NCBI GenBank assembly: GCA_017940605.1 | Contig: JAGAYF010000060.1 | Coordinates: 332-64,331 of the forward strand | Direction: 5' to 3' | Source: Bacteroidaceae bacterium | GTDB taxonomy: Bacteria; Bacteroidota; Bacteroidia; Bacteroidales; Bacteroidaceae | DNA length: 64,000 bases | Part shown: positions 3,494 to 14,320 of the stretch, piece by piece | How the letters are laid out: every line of letters begins with the position of its first letter | Position numbering within the stretch: the first letter of the stretch is position 1 | Position numbers and translations under genes: made by a program | The notes under the pieces: generated by a model | Seen by the model: only the letters and a program-made list of their open reading frames with translations | Told to the model about the DNA's origin: nothing | Database searches by the model: none

Positions 3494-4324
3494 ATGTCAT
3501 ATAGCATAGGAAAATTCAATAGATTGAGAATCGCCGACTTCAATTCGCACGGCGCACTGCTGGACGGCGGCACTGAGCAGGTGCTGATGCCAGGCAAATA
3601 CGTGTCGCCCGAAAGCAAGGTGGGCGATGAAGTCGAGGTGTTTGTCTACTTGGACCAGCAGGACCGCCCGGTGGCCACGACGGAACAGCCTTTGGCTCAA
3701 GTCGGCCAGTTTGCATTCCTGCGTGTTGCGTGGGTAAACAAGTACGGCGCGTTCCTCCACTGGGGAGTCACCAAGGACCTTTTTGTCCCCTATCGTGAAC
3801 AGGCCCGCCGCATGGTCAAGGACGCGGCCTATTTGGTCTACATCTACATTGATCAGGTCACGGGGCGCATTGTCGCTACCAACAAGCTGGACCGTTATGT
3901 GCAAATCCAGAAACAAGGCTATGCCAAGGGTCAGAAAGTCAATGTGTGGGTTTGGAAACAGACCGAAATGGGGTTCAAGGTCATCGTGGACAACCAATAT
4001 CAGGGCTTGGTGTTCAAGAACGAGATTTTCCGCCCTCTGCACATCGGCGATGCCCTCACGGCCGTTGTCAAGTCGGTGCGTCCCGATGGCAAACTGGATA
4101 TATCACTGCAGAATGACGGCAAGCGCCACCTGGATGATTTCTCTGAGCAGCTCTTTGCACAGTTGCAGGCGGCGGGCGGTTTTCTGCCCGTCAATGACGA
4201 CACTCCTCCTGAGGAGATATACCAGCGCTTCGGTGTCAGCAAAAAAACCTTCAAGCGTACGATTGGTACGCTCTATAAGAAACAAGTCATCAGTTTGGAG
4301 GACGACGGCATCCGTCTGGTGTAA
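3494..4324 (+). CDS. cvfB: S1-like RNA-binding domain protein, CvfB/YitL family
   Basis: 276 aa with repeated S1-like segments (GKFNRLRI..HGALLDGG; QVGQFAFLRV; GQKVNVWVWKQTEMG) and a C-terminal winged-helix-like tail GVSKKTFKRTIGTLYKK. Confidence 0.8.
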   Translation: MSYSIGKFNRLRIADFNSHGALLDGGTEQVLMPGKYVSPESKVGDEVEVFVYLDQQDRPVATTEQPLAQVGQFAFLRVAWVNKYGAFLHWGVTKDLFVPYREQARRMVKDAAYLVYIYIDQVTGRIVATNKLDRYVQIQKQGYAKGQKVNVWVWKQTEMGFKVIVDNQYQGLVFKNEIFRPLHIGDALTAVVKSVRPDGKLDISLQNDGKRHLDDFSEQLFAQLQAAGGFLPVNDDTPPEEIYQRFGVSKKTFKRTIGTLYKKQVISLEDDGIRLV

Positions 4325-10777: not shown

Positions 10778-10813
10778 TAAATTTGGCTTTTCTCTCGTTT
10801 TTCCGTAACTTTG
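10778..10813 (+). promoter_or_regulatory. Two tandem -7 promoter boxes (TAAATTTG at 10778, TAACTTTG at 10806) with no adjacent gene
   Basis: Both are exact TAnnTTTG matches. The next sense-strand gene (HU-like) starts about 320 nt downstream. Confidence 0.45.
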
Positions 10814-11136
10814 CGTCACCTATAGAAATGCTATGCCCCTCACCATGTGTCATGCTCCCTATACCATATTATATATAGGCAACGACTCTTCCCCTAACTT
10901 GGGGGAAGAATTAAGTGCTTCAGCGGGCCGCAGGTCGCATTTTGCCCCCCCCATGTAAGTATTTTCGTATCAGCTTGTTACGGTTATGTAACGAGCCGCG
11001 TGCCCGCTCCCGTTCTGAGGAGCGGCCTGCCGTCCGTGCCGTCCCTGTGGGGGCGGCCGCCTGCGTCATGGGGGCATGCATGAAAGTCCTCATTGAATAC
11101 GTCTGTTATCAACCAATCAACCCAATTTTATAAATT

Positions 11137-11568: not shown

Positions 11569-11597
11569 CATGCACCCCTCGGCACGGGGGCGTGAGA

Positions 11598-11861
11598 CTT
11601 ACAGGTGGGTGGCCTCCATGCCCACCCGTAAGTCTCCCCGATACTTACCCGTAAGTGTCCTCCATACCTACCTGTGGTTCTCACGCCGGTCACCCGTAAG
11701 TGTCGCGCCGGTCACCCGTAGGTGTCATGACACCCTGCCGTAAGTCTCATCACACTTACCCGTAAGTGTCCATGAGACTCACCCGTAGGTATCCCCGACA
11801 CTTACCCGTAGGTATGCAGGACATTCACCTGTAAGTCTCACGACACCCTCCCCAGGGTCTC
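11598..11861. repeat. Phased tandem array of 12 palindromic units of 22-23 bp (iteron/operator-like)
   Basis: Core 16-mers start at 11598, 11621, 11644, 11667, 11689, 11711, 11733, 11755, 11778, 11801, 11824 and 11846. Consensus is CT(T/C)ACCCGTA(A/G)GT(G/C)TC. With the linker, each unit approximates the dyad GACACTTAC-CC-GTAAGTGTC. Confidence 0.9.
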
Positions 11862-11927
11862 GCCCCCGCCTGCCGCAAGGTGCACGAAACCAGAATGCAA
11901 ACCTCATGCAACACAACGTTTAACTCT

Positions 11928-13454
11928 ATGAAACATAAGAATACCAAAGAACCCCGACTTCGGCTCTGCCTGTTAGTGGCTTGCCTGATGATGCTGGGCG
12001 GCACGGCCGGCCTGCGGGCGCAGAGCTACTCCCTCTATGTGGGCGACGAAGTCATGGTGTACAACCCCACGCCGCCCCAGGGCAGCATTGATGCCTGTAC
12101 GTGGACGAGCAACACGGCCGGATGCTCCACCACCCAGCGCGCCAATGGATGCATCATCAGCGTGGATGCCTACTTCTCGGGCGTGGCCACGGTGGAGTGC
12201 TACTACAACTACTCCTACTATTCCTCGGCCGCGAAATCCTATGTGGTCAGCCATGGTTCGGCCTACTACTACGTTTCGGCCAAGCCCATCACCATGAAGC
12301 TCAATGCCAAGGAAATTACCCTGCACCCCACGCAGGGCTACGAACTGACCTGCACGTTCAGCCCAGAGCCCAAGTTCTCGCTTGACCCATTCGTCGAGTG
12401 GTCGTCCACCGACGAGAGCGTGGCCACGGTGACCCAGAGTGGCTATGTCAGGGCCAAGAAAGGGGGCAAGTGTACCATCATTGCCGACGGCCACACGGGC
12501 AATGCGCCCCAGCAGTGCACCGTCACCGTGACCGAAGTGCCGCCCACGGGCGTGAGCCTGTCGGGCGATGTCACGCTTAATGTGGGTGAGAGCAAGTCGA
12601 TCACGGCCAAGGTTACCCCTACCTATGCCACCACCTCCCTCACGTGGTCCAGCAGCCGTCCGGCGGTGGCCACGGTGAGCAGCACGGGCCAGGTGAAGGC
12701 CGTGGCCTCGGGTACGGCCGTCATTACCGTGCGCACCGGCAACGGCCTGTCGGCCACCAGCCAGGTGACCGTGCGCCCCGAGCCCACGCGCATCAACGTG
12801 TCGCCTTCGACGCTGCGGCTCAAGATGGGCGAGAGCGCCACGCTCAGCCATTCGCTCTATCCCACCAATGCCGGCACGACGTCCCTCACGTGGTCCACGT
12901 CCGACGGGATCGTGGCCACGGTGACCGACCAGGGCGTGGTGAAAGCCGTGGCATCCGGTACGGCCGACATCAGCATAACGGCGGCCAACGGTGTCAGCGG
13001 TAAGTGCCGCGTCACCGTGCCCACGCCGCAGTATGTCTTCCTGGTGTGGATGAAGAACGGCGAAAAGCTGGTCTACTCCACCAACGACAAGCCCCGCGTG
13101 CAGATGGGGGCGCAGACCGTGACCGTCAGTTCCTCGCGCGGTGCGCTGGAGTATGCCGGTGAGCAAGTGCTGAAGTTCACCATGCAGGATGCCGACCTGC
13201 CCATTCCCGACGGCATCCGCCCCGTCCAGGCCGCCGGCCCCGCCGTGCCGCACATGGACTACGGCGGCGACCGTGTGGACCTGTCGGGTTGCCGCGCAGG
13301 CGGCCCAGTGGCCGTCTATGACCTGCAGGGCCACCTGCTCATGCGCCGCACGGCCGATGCCGAGGGCCGTCTCTCCCTGTCCCTGTCGGAACTGAACAGG
13401 GGCATCTATCTCATCAAGACAGAAAACAATACCTATAAAATACACAAGAAATGA
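11928..13454 (+). CDS. Big_2 (bacterial Ig-like) repeat protein with T9SS C-terminal sorting domain
   Basis: Signal peptide LRLCLLVACLMMLGGTAGLRAQ. Three Big_2-like repeats (..WSSTDESVATVTQSGYVRAKKGGKCTI; WSSSRPAVATVSSTGQVKAVASGTAVITV; WSTSDGIVATVTDQGVVKAVASGTADISI). C-terminus VAVYDLQGHLL..LSELNRGIYLIKTENNTYKI is typical of T9SS CTDs. ATG at 11928 preferred over GTG at 11880. Confidence 0.85.
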   Translation: MKHKNTKEPRLRLCLLVACLMMLGGTAGLRAQSYSLYVGDEVMVYNPTPPQGSIDACTWTSNTAGCSTTQRANGCIISVDAYFSGVATVECYYNYSYYSSAAKSYVVSHGSAYYYVSAKPITMKLNAKEITLHPTQGYELTCTFSPEPKFSLDPFVEWSSTDESVATVTQSGYVRAKKGGKCTIIADGHTGNAPQQCTVTVTEVPPTGVSLSGDVTLNVGESKSITAKVTPTYATTSLTWSSSRPAVATVSSTGQVKAVASGTAVITVRTGNGLSATSQVTVRPEPTRINVSPSTLRLKMGESATLSHSLYPTNAGTTSLTWSTSDGIVATVTDQGVVKAVASGTADISITAANGVSGKCRVTVPTPQYVFLVWMKNGEKLVYSTNDKPRVQMGAQTVTVSSSRGALEYAGEQVLKFTMQDADLPIPDGIRPVQAAGPAVPHMDYGGDRVDLSGCRAGGPVAVYDLQGHLLMRRTADAEGRLSLSLSELNRGIYLIKTENNTYKIHKK

Positions 13455-14320
13455 AAGCAATGAACAAGAGAATACATGCAACAATCATACGCCCCCTGCT
13501 CACGCTGTGCCTTGCCCTGACGGCCTGGACGCAGGCTGGGGCGCAGGGCGTGGTCATCTACAAGACCAACGGCGAGACAACCATCCTGCAGGCCAGTGAC
13601 ATCAAGGAAATCGTACCCTTTGGCTACGGCGAGAAGCCCTGGACCGAGGTAACGGGCGGCAAGGTGTACACCGTCAATGGCGTCAAGTTCACCATGGTAG
13701 AAGTGGAGGGTGGCTCATGTACATATACTAGTAGGCATATTTATCGATTAGAGAAATTCAGTATAGGCCAAACTGAGGTGACGCAGGCCCTATGGGAAGC
13801 CGTGATGGGATCAAACCCCAGTTACAGTAAGGGAATGATAGGCCCTAATTTCCCTGTTAACAATGTGAGCTGGCATGACTGCCAGACCTTTATTGTTAAG
13901 CTCAATCAATTAACGGGACTAGAGTTTCGGTTACCTAATCAGTTTGAGTGGTATTATGCGGCTTTTGGGGGAAATAATGGAAAAAAATATAAGTTTAGTG
14001 GTTCTGACGATGCCGGTGAGGTGGCATGGTACAGTGCTAATTCTGATTGGCATGTACATGAGGTAGCCACAAAGAGTCCTAATGAGTTAGGAATTTACGA
14101 TATGAGTGGCAATGTGGAAGAATGGTGCTATAATTGGTACGGTTCGCTGCCTTCTAGTGGTGCTATTGGCACCAGTTATCAAGGTCCTGCAAACAAAACT
14201 GAACGGGCATATAAAGGTGGTGGCTATACTTCTTCTGAATCAGAACTGAACAATGGTTGGGGTTTTAGTTATGCCCCCTCCTCAAAATATTCGTATTTAG
14301 GCCTTCGTCTTGCTCTATAG
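13451..14320 (+). CDS. Secreted FGE-sulfatase (SUMF1/GldJ/GldK-like) domain protein
   Basis: Signal peptide. FGE-fold motifs FSIGQTEVTQALWEAVMG, PVNNVSWHDCQTF, RLPNQFEWYYAA, NELGIYDMSGNVEEW, AYKGGGY. Start overlaps the upstream stop (ATGA at 13451-13454). Confidence 0.85.
   Translation: MKAMNKRIHATIIRPLLTLCLALTAWTQAGAQGVVIYKTNGETTILQASDIKEIVPFGYGEKPWTEVTGGKVYTVNGVKFTMVEVEGGSCTYTSRHIYRLEKFSIGQTEVTQALWEAVMGSNPSYSKGMIGPNFPVNNVSWHDCQTFIVKLNQLTGLEFRLPNQFEWYYAAFGGNNGKKYKFSGSDDAGEVAWYSANSDWHVHEVATKSPNELGIYDMSGNVEEWCYNWYGSLPSSGAIGTSYQGPANKTERAYKGGGYTSSESELNNGWGFSYAPSSKYSYLGLRLAL

Follow-up and report, generated by a model that had tools for sequence, protein, structure and literature searches.

A phased array of short, partly symmetric DNA units lies between a gene for a DNA-binding protein of the HU-HIG family and a gene for a secreted T9SS protein in the window analysed here, which is the whole 64,000-nucleotide stretch of DNA from a Bacteroidaceae bacterium. 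This layout raises the question of whether the array is a functional companion of one of its neighbors or a repeat that came to rest between them by chance.

The array and its flanking genes

The array (11594–11861; Table 1) comprises 12 units with a mean period of 22.5 bp. All 12 core starts given in a preliminary description of this locus proved correct: successive cores start 22 or 23 bp apart, which is the register of the HU-HIG-linked arrays described below (types A and B, period 22), and they are joined by linkers of 6–7 nt. The forward cores of units 2–11 begin at 11621, 11644, 11667, 11689, 11711, 11733, 11755, 11778, 11801, and 11824. Tandem Repeats Finder assigns a period of 22–23 to positions 11616–11846, with unit matches of 68–76%. 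When the 64 kb window was scanned with the 16-mer core consensus of the preliminary description, allowing up to 3 mismatches, 13 matches were obtained against 1.8 expected, a number that was reached in 0 of 100 shuffles. All 13 fall within 11594–11839 and the rest of the window contains none, which bears out this consensus. Both outer units had been called degenerate. Unit 12 is so, whereas unit 1 turned out to be an inverted copy of the core, which pairs with unit 2 as a 16-nt hairpin (94% complementary). A long-range inverted repeat of ~27 nt encloses the whole element.

Table 1 Features of the array locus, in window coordinates
Feature	Position	Strand	Remark
Probable −7 promoter box of the HU-HIG gene	11098–11105	+	TACGTCTG; one mismatch to TAnnTTTG
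HU-HIG family DNA-binding protein gene, 143 aa	11137–11568	+	Pfam PF18291, E = 7e-24
Left arm of long-range inverted repeat	11571–11598		Pairs with 11857–11885 in the minimum-free-energy fold of either strand; also found in repeat search
Unit 1, inverted core copy	11594–11609	−	Minus strand reads CCCACCTGTAAGTCTC, 2 mismatches (motif search)
Units 2–11, forward cores	11621–11839	+	16 nt each plus 6–7 nt linker
Unit 12, degenerate	11846–11861	+	CCCTCCCCAGGGTCTC; in register, 22 bp past unit 11; GGTCTC kept
Right arm of long-range inverted repeat	11857–11885		Repeat search and minimum-free-energy folds
Secreted Big_2 repeat protein gene, T9SS C-terminal sorting domain	11928–13454	+	Pfam Big_2, E = 1.5e-33

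Because the period is not a multiple of three and the sole open reading frame that crosses the array is spurious and out of frame, the region is non-coding, as had been argued before. The short linkers also rule out a CRISPR array, whose unique spacers measure ~26–40 bp, again in agreement with the earlier view. The array does not belong to a catalogued family among those searched. No Rfam match was found at the gathering score in the whole window and six related loci, and at E values up to 1 the array region gave just two chance-level matches. The array had no blastn match among 72,556 plasmids or 50,697 phage records, and a metagenome scan with the window-type two-unit pattern yielded no further copy, only unrelated marine 22-bp repeats.

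The units had been described as palindromic, each approximating a 20-bp dyad. This is true of units 3 and 8, the only ones in which 8 of 9 arm pairs match, but it overstates the symmetry of the others: matching arm pairs number 4–8 of 9 across the array, with a mean of 5.7, and the 9-2-9 dyad plan is good in 2/12 units. Conservation is concentrated in an asymmetric core of 13 nt, (Y)ACCCGTARGTNTC, which has 87% column identity and five columns that are invariant across 10/10 forward units. The remaining 9 columns of the unit have 66% identity (heterogeneity of core versus rest, P = 0.006). The half-site orientation flips every ~11 bp, and complementarity is equal in the two registers (63% and 65%).

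The array starts 26–29 nt past the stop codon of the upstream gene (29 nt for the first listed core). The product of this gene is a member of the HU-HIG clade of the HU/IHF superfamily by its PF18291 domain and by its best structural match. Its AlphaFold model (pLDDT 88) has a confident HU fold, for which the best PDB match is the HU-HIG protein of Bacteroides vulgatus (4FMR), followed by canonical HU structures. This modelled fold, together with a cleft that is not occluded by an Ig domain, makes it plausible that the protein binds DNA. At the tip of the HU ‘arm’, the model has a helix instead of a β-ribbon, so any contact of this protein with DNA would be non-canonical. The probable promoter box of the gene was assigned from an alignment made by eye: it precedes the ATG by ~30–40 nt, at the site where relatives have their exact TAnnTTTG boxes, and is followed by a 5′ leader (ATCAACCC..AATTTTATAAATT-ATG) that is similar to theirs.

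The downstream gene begins 66 nt past the last array unit, which confirms the reported placement of the array between an HU-family gene and a T9SS gene. Its Por_Secre_tail match (E = 1.5e-5, 25.6 bits) lies slightly below the 27-bit cut-off. Both genes are on the + strand. As noted previously, there is no exact TAnnTTTG box between them (11569–11927), and this interval also contains no terminator-like site on the + strand. The downstream gene is a possible regulatory target of the array.

Arrays downstream of other HU-HIG genes

HU-HIG loci were collected by protein, and not by motif, and they form 22 groups besides the window. A clear array with a 22-bp period lies on the same strand, at most ~300 bp downstream of the HU-HIG stop codon, at 14/22 of these loci; one more locus is a probable case, and seven have no array. 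Tandem Repeats Finder detected no further array of period 21–23 in the HU-HIG loci, which amount to an estimated ~100 kb. The window array occupies this same position relative to its PF18291 gene, and because 14–15 of 22 other HU-HIG loci have a 22-bp array just downstream, its position is not accidental. The architecture of iterons, centromeres, or operator arrays that had been suggested for the locus, with a possible link to HU, fits this pattern.

The HU-HIG-linked arrays are of two types. Type A, with the unit TTGTCYTATARGACAA in 2–3.5 copies, is found in Prevotella, Tannerella, and a genome of 68% GC (P. intermedia, L040, L042, L049, L051, L052, L062/63, L064, T. forsythia (L044), and viral contig L066). 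Type B, with the unit ACTACCYRTARGTAGT in 4 copies, is found on viral contigs, where it begins at the stop codon (L067, L069, L070, and L068, the last of which shares its contig with L048); L054 is a diverged, probable type-B case. A central CCTATAGG and a 6-4-6 dyad plan are common to both types; the 9-2-9 plan of the window units is set in another register than 6-4-6 with its centre CYRTARG.

The window core, ACCCGTAAGT, and unit 3 of type B (ACTACCCGTAAGTAGT) are identical. Furthermore, the window and type-B arrays both begin at or near the stop codon, on the coding strand and with no terminator in between, and an inverted unit opens the array in the window, in L048, and in L069. The window HU-HIG protein is closest to type-A proteins (46–58% identity), yet the core is type-B-like, so that simple covariation of protein and site is not seen. 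With 12 units and 68–76% matches, the window array also departs from the tight set of 2–5 conserved units found in the HU-HIG-linked class. It appears to be an unusually long and diverged form of an undescribed pairing, present in Bacteroidales and phages, of an HU-HIG gene with its own phased array.

Type-A arrays are at least as conserved as the HU-HIG coding sequence: between taxa, their mean identity is 78%, compared to 70% for the coding sequence and 46% for the DNA just past the array. The AT-rich type-A unit is kept in the 68% GC genome, and the distal array edge is where between-strain synteny stops. Within the 429 kb of DNA that was fetched, the type-A core (≤1 mismatch) occurs outside the arrays at two viral loci that were fished by that very pattern and in one chance match, and a blastn search of the type-A module against the plasmid and phage records gave a weak Fusobacterium match only.

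The preliminary description had also proposed that the array is a copy-number switch, in which gain or loss of units phase-varies the downstream surface protein. A tandem repeat immediately upstream of a surface-protein gene has the architecture for this, but we found no other support for the proposal. Units that are just 68–76% alike are a poor substrate for slippage; the array is identical in the one independent assembly (L001), although this says little, as it is the same strain bar a 1-nt indel; and the 3-unit array of P. intermedia is identical between strains despite flanking DNA that is 3% diverged. Such a switch is hardly credible.

Another proposal was that of a structured RNA. If the two flanking genes are co-transcribed, the RNA between them would fold into successive hairpins, which might make the transcript more stable, cause its termination or attenuation, or titrate away an RNA-binding protein. 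Two + strand genes with neither a promoter box nor a terminator-like site between them would suit this, as would the very stable fold of the + strand (−157 kcal/mol, z = −8.7) and, weakly, the co-directional orientation at 5/6 loci. However, the strand without a gene folds even better (− strand, −193 kcal/mol, z = −11.8). Both strands fold well because the units are palindromic, and palindromic DNA of any kind does so. The best dyads have a 2-nt loop, it is the asymmetric core and not the stem that is conserved, and the wobble-type arm mismatches are balanced, with no strand bias (11 G.T versus 9 A.C, next to 20 of other kinds). The related type-A arrays usually stand behind an intrinsic terminator, and their 24 units contain no compensatory changes: pair 8–13 is T-A in 9 units, C.A in 10, T.G in 5, and C-G in 0, and pair 5–16 is G.G in 7. 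These substitution patterns fit independent variation of half-sites in DNA, not RNA stems. Taken together with the Rfam result, which did not exceed chance level, they make an RNA element improbable.

Same-core arrays elsewhere and known repeat systems

The core motif, which is confined to the array within the window, recurs in tandem in other genomes. The two-unit pattern ACCCGTARGT-N12-13-ACCCGTARGT was found at 27 loci in species-representative genomes, ~19 of which are in Prevotella and other Bacteroidales. There are several such loci per genome, with units more alike within than between genomes, and some Prevotella loci contain three different 22-bp arrays inside 8 kb. All dispersed arrays that were examined are intergenic and stand beside housekeeping genes (such as pheT, pgk, ligA, purU, and luxS). 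Within 8 kb of the ACCCGTAAGT-core Prevotella arrays, we detected no HU-HIG gene, and local HMMs located HU-HIG genes at two of the dispersed-array loci only (L017 and L048). Among the Pfam matches listed for 43 flanking ORFs are housekeeping genes, two DUF4248 proteins, and two KilA-N proteins. In Segatella copri (L017), a ACCCGTAAGT-type array runs from the stop codon of a BT4734/VapE-like gene and is followed by DUF4248 and HU-HIG genes; in L022, 113 bp separate the array from a VapE-like gene, on the side of that gene's 3′ end. The array in type B and in L017 is always immediately upstream of a DUF4248 gene, the product of which could be the binder at these loci. By our own count, which is weak, array orientation agrees with that of co-directional flanking genes in 5/6 loci. 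A literature search on the core motif, 22-bp Prevotella repeats, and DUF4248 found nothing relevant.

These dispersed arrays, with their within-genome likeness and housekeeping neighbors, speak for a different origin of the window array, namely as one of the intergenic minisatellites that, like BrickBuilt or REP/BIME, are dispersed through genomes. It would then be selfish or neutral and possibly borne by a MITE, a repeat that spreads and lengthens by slippage, and this would mean that its adjacency to the HU-HIG gene is coincidental. The degenerate units and inverted-repeat ends of the window element agree with such an origin. BrickBuilt, a minisatellite/MITE of Porphyromonas gingivalis (Klein et al. 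2015), is a spacer-less 23-nt tandem repeat of up to ~18 units with inverted-repeat ends, is always intergenic, and is present in 19 copies per genome; it often adjoins T9SS (PorSS CTD) cargo genes, and one copy lies by the HU-family gene PGN_0872, but it is not described as HU-linked (PMC4596501). The two elements are alike in being from the order Bacteroidales and in their tandem 22–23 nt units, inverted-repeat ends, T9SS neighbor, and lack of an Rfam match. Unit sequence and terminal repeats nevertheless rule out that the window array is BrickBuilt. The BrickBuilt unit AGAYCATARTATCCTCTCRTRTG is unrelated to the window unit, its best match anywhere in the window having 7 mismatches; neither of the IS5-like leader and tail terminal repeats (AAGACCTTTGCA / CCGAAAGGTCTC, ≤2 mismatches) is present at the array. 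The 64 kb window contains one array copy; BrickBuilt has 19 copies per genome.

In enterobacteria, REP/BIME elements form clusters between genes, made up of short imperfect palindromes whose orientation alternates; HU and IHF associate with them, and REP325 RNA is bound by HU. REP units are 35–40 bp long, lack strict phasing, number in the hundreds, and owe their mobility to RAYT transposases, and they are not genetically linked to HU genes. The window array shares the intergenic location, the imperfect palindromes, and the alternating half-sites, but it is a single cluster in 64 kb with strict 22–23 bp phasing, and no other window-type unit pair came up in the metagenome scan. Considering (i) the recurrence of HU-HIG linkage at independent loci, (ii) a viral contig that carries the same core straight after an HU-HIG gene, and (iii) core columns that are better conserved than the linkers, which would not be expected if a slipped array had decayed neutrally and evenly, a minisatellite with a coincidental neighbor is an unlikely explanation.

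Tandem direct repeats of ~22 bp are also the classical layout of iterons. The R6K gamma ori contains seven 22-bp iterons as direct tandem repeats, and IHF or HU is often accessory to iterons. The window array might accordingly represent the iterons or the centromere of a mobile element, integrated or former, with a VapE/primase-type origin or a partition site at which the HU-HIG protein would help by bending the DNA. The VapE-like genes beside the arrays of L017 and L022 and the presence of type-B arrays on viral contigs favor this idea, but the window itself does not. Its neighbors are chromosomal in kind (RNase HII, WYL regulator, xpt, Big_2, and FGE-sulfatase proteins), and the seven flanking ORFs scanned with Pfam (WYL regulator, xpt, HU-HIG, Big_2, FGE-sulfatase, and two without assignment) include no Rep initiator, VapE, ParA, or integrase. 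There is no DnaA-box cluster at the array, the one 1-mismatch DnaA box being 1.2 kb off, and no adjoining unwinding region, as AT-rich DNA near the array is found at two gene starts only. The array has no similarity to plasmid or phage records, and type-A arrays occupy many different housekeeping contexts. We assign little likelihood to an origin or partition site. A DGR for the FGE-sulfatase gene was also rejected, as there is no template/variable repeat pair within 12–20 kb.

In sopC and in the parC sites of R1 and pSK41, phased dyad-containing repeats lie directly beside the gene of their binding protein. In the F plasmid, sopC lies downstream of sopB and consists of 12 repeats, each 43 bp long; in pSK41, the parC repeats measure 20 bp and form a wrapped, superhelical complex. 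The window has a similar layout, an array next to the gene of a DNA-binding protein, with HU-HIG as the candidate binder. It differs in its chromosomal context, in its period compared to that of sopC, in the fold of the neighboring protein (HU, and not ParB or ribbon-helix-helix), and in lacking a ParA-type or actin-type NTPase gene (no ParA, ParM, or TubZ by Pfam in the seven flanking ORFs). The 77-bp inverted repeat of the P. gingivalis capsule locus, which is paired with HU-beta, is a loose analogy only, with a different HU type and a different layout.

A proposed HU-HIG binding platform

We propose that the window array acts in cis as a phased platform to which the adjacent HU-HIG protein, or a partner, binds, and that it has here grown to 12 units ahead of the T9SS gene; we give this proposal an even chance of being correct. 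A nucleoprotein platform had been the first hypothesis put forward for the locus, and comparative linkage makes it the best reading; binding, the identity of the binding protein, cooperativity, and an effect on transcription are steps that we infer.

According to the model, the element would belong with the upstream HU-HIG gene as a set of phased recognition sites, each with a 13-nt core, spaced at 22–23 bp or about two helical turns. It would be the expanded, diverged 12-unit counterpart of the 2–5-dyad arrays of Prevotella, Tannerella, other Bacteroidales, and Bacteroidales-type viral contigs, where the symmetric sites are probably protein-binding sites. Each unit would be bound by a dimer, made up either of HU-HIG or of a partner protein. 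Adjacent dimers would be about two helical turns apart, with successive sites offset by ~50 degrees if there are 10.5 bp per turn, and contacts between dimers could produce a cooperative, wrapped nucleoprotein filament. Such a filament, lying between the HU-HIG gene and the promoterless-looking T9SS gene, could gate read-through transcription into the latter because no promoter of that gene is recognisable. The putative control of the 11928 gene is suggested by our recognising neither a promoter nor a terminator between the two genes.

Counting against the platform, Burroughs et al. (2017), the one comparative study that we found, argue that the HU-HIG family is unlikely to be sequence-specific; they also report almost no conserved gene linkage for the clade, in an analysis that covers coding genes only and does not mention downstream arrays (PMC5499826). 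Other points against it are the helical arm tip of the modelled protein, the type-B-like core beside a protein closest to type A, the same-core Prevotella arrays next to housekeeping genes, the seven HU-HIG loci that lack an array, the DUF4248 protein as a candidate binder in type B and L017, and the number and degeneracy of the window units. A broader and rather doubtful extension of the platform proposal is that HU-HIG proteins are sequence-specific and that the 22-bp dyad array of each lineage serves as an ‘address’ beside its gene, at which the protein nucleates. Gene and array would then constitute a self-marking module of chromosomes and phages, and long 22–23 bp minisatellites would have arisen through expansion of its binding sites, among them the window array, the arrays dispersed in Prevotella, and perhaps BrickBuilt. 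If so, the module could act as a boundary or as a platform, either for silencing or as a decoy.

HU-HIG proteins form a large, fast-evolving family that is restricted to Bacteroidetes and enigmatic in function. A conserved non-coding partner would provide this family with its first candidate DNA targets, and the candidate arrays are conserved at least as well as the gene, remain AT-rich in a 68% GC genome, and mark an edge of synteny. Such a partner would make HU-HIG function testable by binding and deletion in the tractable species P. intermedia and T. forsythia. Furthermore, the link between HU-HIG genes and arrays may explain why 22–23 bp intergenic minisatellites are frequent in Prevotella and Porphyromonas, including those next to genes of T9SS surface proteins.

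Units and symmetry of the window array

The tandem array that separates the HU-HIG gene from the adhesin-like gene (the window array) is real: Tandem Repeats Finder reports a period of 22-23, and all 12 core starts listed in the preliminary description are correct, with a spacing of 22 or 23 bp throughout (mean 22.5). The consensus CTYACCCGTARGTSTC has 13 matches at ≤3 mismatches in the 64-kb window compared to 1.8 expected, a number reached in 0 of 100 shuffles, and none of them lies outside the array. The palindromic character of the array had, however, been overstated. Unit 1, previously called degenerate, instead carries the core on the minus strand, as an inverted copy that pairs with unit 2. 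The dyads of about 20 bp are near perfect in units 3 and 8 but only partial elsewhere, with an arm complementarity of 4-8 out of 9 per unit (mean 5.7). The units have an asymmetric core of 13 nt in common, (Y)ACCCGTARGTNTC, the columns of which are 87% identical compared to 66% for the other columns, a heterogeneity (P = 0.006) that is unlikely under uniform decay. The orientation of the half-sites alternates about every 11 bp, complementarity is equal in both registers, and an inverted repeat closes the whole element.

No Rfam family matches the array at the gathering score or at E up to 1, and a blastn search of 72,556 plasmid and 50,697 phage records returned no match. As the linkers are only 6-7 nt long, the array is not a CRISPR array. 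Features of a replication origin are lacking: there is no DnaA-box cluster, no adjoining AT-rich unwinding region and no Rep, VapE or ParA gene among the seven flanking ORFs scanned. BrickBuilt, the 23-nt minisatellite/MITE of Porphyromonas gingivalis, was rejected, as its unit AGAYCATARTATCCTCTCRTRTG and IS5-like terminal repeats are both absent. The proposal that the array is a structured RNA element finds no support in the window, where both strands fold strongly (z = −8.7 and −11.8) and wobble-type mismatches are balanced (11 G.T versus 9 A.C, with 20 of other kinds). Phase variation, also proposed, is not supported.

The flanking genes are as originally stated, an HU-family gene upstream and a T9SS adhesin-like gene downstream. 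The interval between them contains no exact TAnnTTTG box, also as stated, and no terminator-like site was found there on the + strand. The organism of the window stands apart, and the nearest homologues of its HU-HIG protein are only about 60% identical to the latter. The structural model of the protein has a confident HU fold (pLDDT 88), with 4FMR and canonical HU as the best PDB matches; the N-terminus bears an additional hairpin and the arm tip is helical, owing to which any DNA contact would be non-canonical.

Upstream of the HU-HIG gene, the 458-bp xpt/HU-HIG spacer holds two exact Bacteroidetes −7 boxes, TAAATTTG and TAACTTTG, at a distance of 330-360 bp from the ATG; they may belong to a long leader or to a transcript that lacks annotation. 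Closer to the gene, some 190 bp before its start, is a run of eight Cs. L001, an independent ENA assembly of the same locus, has one C more in this run, its sole real difference from the window in 6.4 kb, which could be homopolymer slippage or assembly noise. The FGE-sulfatase-domain gene has a GC content of 0.42-0.45 versus about 0.60 in the region, which suggests a foreign origin; no DGR-type template/variable repeat pair was found within 12-20 kb of it.

Coordinates of features in the window and in related loci (L numbers denote fetched loci)
Feature	Locus	Position	Remark
Two exact −7 boxes	Window	10778-10813	
Eight-C run	Window	10945-10952	
Probable −7 box of HU-HIG gene	Window	11098	
HU-HIG gene	Window	ends 11568	Pfam PF18291, E = 7e-24
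Closing inverted repeat	Window	11571-11598 and 11857-11885	~27 nt
All CTYACCCGTARGTSTC matches	Window	11594-11839	
Tandem repeat	Window	11616-11846	Tandem Repeats Finder
Big_2 protein gene	Window	starts 11928	T9SS sorting tail, adhesin-like
FGE-sulfatase-domain gene	Window	13451-14320	
Tandem arrays, Prevotella sp. CAG:1031	L003	727-820, 5205-5300, 7360-7419	
Tandem arrays, Prevotella sp. CAG:1031	L021	634-737, 4740-4783, 5662-5821	
Box (G/A)TAACTCNTTGRTAATCA	L033	3545-3585	P. intermedia
Cassette, P. intermedia	L033	3659-4236	
Cassette, P. intermedia	L034	3660-4313	
Second 22-bp array	L049	2952-3024	
CCGCGTTTTTTTGCGG pair	L060	2470-2520	
SIR2_2-domain gene	L052	3193-4749	

Arrays downstream of HU-HIG genes

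Loci of homologues of the window HU-HIG protein were fetched by protein, with no motif used. An array lies within about 300 bp downstream of the HU-HIG gene in 14-15 of 22 independently fetched loci, and Tandem Repeats Finder reported no other arrays of period 21-23 elsewhere in these loci (an estimated 100 kb or so). Type A is a module common to ten groups (P. intermedia, T. forsythia, L040, L042, L049, L051, L052, L062/63, L064 and the viral contig L066), in which the HU-HIG stop is usually followed by an intrinsic terminator, the box (G/A)TAACTCNTTGRTAATCA (in most loci) and 2-3.5 units of the 22-bp dyad TTGTCYTATARGACAA. Across the 429 kb fetched, the type-A core (≤1 mismatch) is confined to these arrays, two viral loci that had been fished using that pattern and one chance match. 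Type B, found in viral contigs (L048, which is the same contig as L068, L067, L069 and L070, with L054 as a diverged probable case), comprises four units of ACTACCYRTARGTAGT in an exact 22-bp register from the HU-HIG stop codon onward, and a DUF4248 gene usually comes next. The two types have the centre CCTATAGG in common. Exceptions are L037-39, where an IS element cuts the 3′ end of the HU-HIG gene, L060/61 with a tandem HU-HIG pair, and five phage records with other neighbours (L055-59).

Several local features accompany these loci. L060, whose context is prophage-like, has two copies of CCGCGTTTTTTTGCGG at a 22-bp distance downstream of its tandem HU-HIG pair. The (G/A)TAACTCNTTGRTAATCA box precedes the type-A arrays of different families by about 20 nt (L033, L044, L049, L051, L052, L066); its centre, TGATAATCA, is itself palindromic and presumably resembles half of a Fur box. 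In L049, a second 22-bp array of three CCTTTTTCAGGGTCAAAAAGAA units lies between the HU-HIG terminator and this box. In L052, some 40 bp separate the type-A array from the start of a SIR2_2-domain gene, a type often seen in defence systems.

Conservation and the dispersed-minisatellite alternative

Between taxa, type-A arrays are on average 78% identical, compared to 70% for HU-HIG coding sequence and 46% for the DNA just past the array, and the AT-rich type-A unit is kept in a genome of 68% GC (L064). Between strains, similarity ends at the distal edge of the array: P. intermedia strains are identical to position 3658, the array ending at 3652, and in L042 versus L043 the last base of the array is the end of identity. 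The polarity of type-A arrays relative to the gene is fixed (first units ..AAGAGAA, last unit ..AAGACAA). Beside the centre, 24 type-A units have the pair T-A (9 units), C.A (10) or T.G (5) and never C-G, and 7 units have G.G at another pair. Judged from these sequences, the half-sites undergo independent transitions without compensation, as in protein-binding dyads and unlike RNA stems. The HU-HIG-linked arrays look functional, and at the DNA level. Past the P. intermedia array, a replaceable cassette precedes a conserved Bro-N gene; in one strain its product is a GTPase-like protein of 135 aa, in the other an unrelated protein of 193 aa.

The main rival reading is that the window array is a dispersed minisatellite. 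When species-representative genomes were scanned for pairs of cores at a distance of 22-23 bp, 27 loci were obtained. About 19 of these belong to Prevotella or other members of the Bacteroidales, and one genome often contributes several; a few others, from taxa such as Streptomyces and Treponema, appear to be tandem repeats that arose by chance. With 3-20 units at a period of 22 bp, the Bacteroidales arrays are intergenic in every case examined and adjoin ordinary housekeeping genes, and some Prevotella loci carry three distinct 22-bp arrays inside 8 kb. Intergenic arrays of 22 bp are a general feature of the Prevotella/Bacteroidales group, which supports the minisatellite reading. In Prevotella sp. 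CAG:1031, each of two 8-kb stretches (L003, L021) contains three arrays with different units, all of period 22 bp but for one short 21-bp array in L021; many intergenic regions of some Prevotella genomes are therefore filled with short-period arrays. Three matches are set apart from the rest: the array of L017 (Segatella copri) has a VapE/BT4734 primase-like gene on one side and, on the other, a DUF4248 gene and then an HU-HIG gene; that of L022 borders the 3′ end of a VapE-like gene; and that of the viral contig L048 begins at the HU-HIG stop codon, on the coding strand, with a DUF4248 gene next.

That the window array instead belongs to the HU-HIG-linked class is, in our view, rather likely. 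It follows an HU-HIG gene, on the strand of that gene, and keeps the same 22-bp register as types A and B; like type B it lacks the type-A terminator, its core ACCCGTAAGT and unit 3 of type-B arrays are the same sequence, and its first unit is inverted, as in L048 and L069. It nevertheless has 12 units versus 2-5 in types A and B, these units are more degenerate with the dyad in another register, and its HU-HIG protein is 46-58% identical to type-A proteins versus 30% to type-B. Given this combination, we read the array as an apparently expanded, diverged variant of the class and not as a typical member.

A putative binding platform

Of the earlier hypotheses, a nucleoprotein platform is the best supported, and the window array probably serves as such a platform, bound by the neighbouring HU-HIG protein or by a partner; the HU-HIG protein itself is a tentative candidate for the binder. 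We infer binding, cooperativity and a regulatory effect as follows. Dimers of HU-HIG or its partner would bind sites two helical turns apart, and neighbouring dimers would touch, giving a cooperative, wrapped complex between the two genes. Since the HU-HIG gene comes with a probable −7 box of its own and the adhesin-like gene has no recognisable promoter, such a complex could gate read-through into the latter.

The window array is a variant of an already known kind of architecture. In parC centromeres and sopC, sites two helical turns apart carry touching dimers in a cooperative wrapped complex. The sopB-sopC and ParR-parC systems are nearest in logic, but their NTPase partner is missing at the window array, and R6K-type iterons resemble it in unit length and in nothing else. 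BrickBuilt is the nearest described element in form and taxon, although its sequence differs. Its unit palindrome TCTCAYRTGAGA and the type-A TCTTATAAGAGA are alike at 10 of 12 positions with a shifted register. BrickBuilt_14 is next to the HU-family gene PGN_0872, and at eight loci BrickBuilt has T9SS CTD genes as neighbours (PMC4596501). Kinship with type-A sites is a lead only.

A literature search for the window motif and for such arrays found no description, and the one genomics study of HU-HIG that was found, with non-coding DNA outside its scope, reported almost no conserved linkage (PMC5499826), so the pairing of HU-HIG genes with arrays has apparently not been described before. Through the comparison, what began as a single odd array becomes a widespread, testable module of the HU-HIG family.
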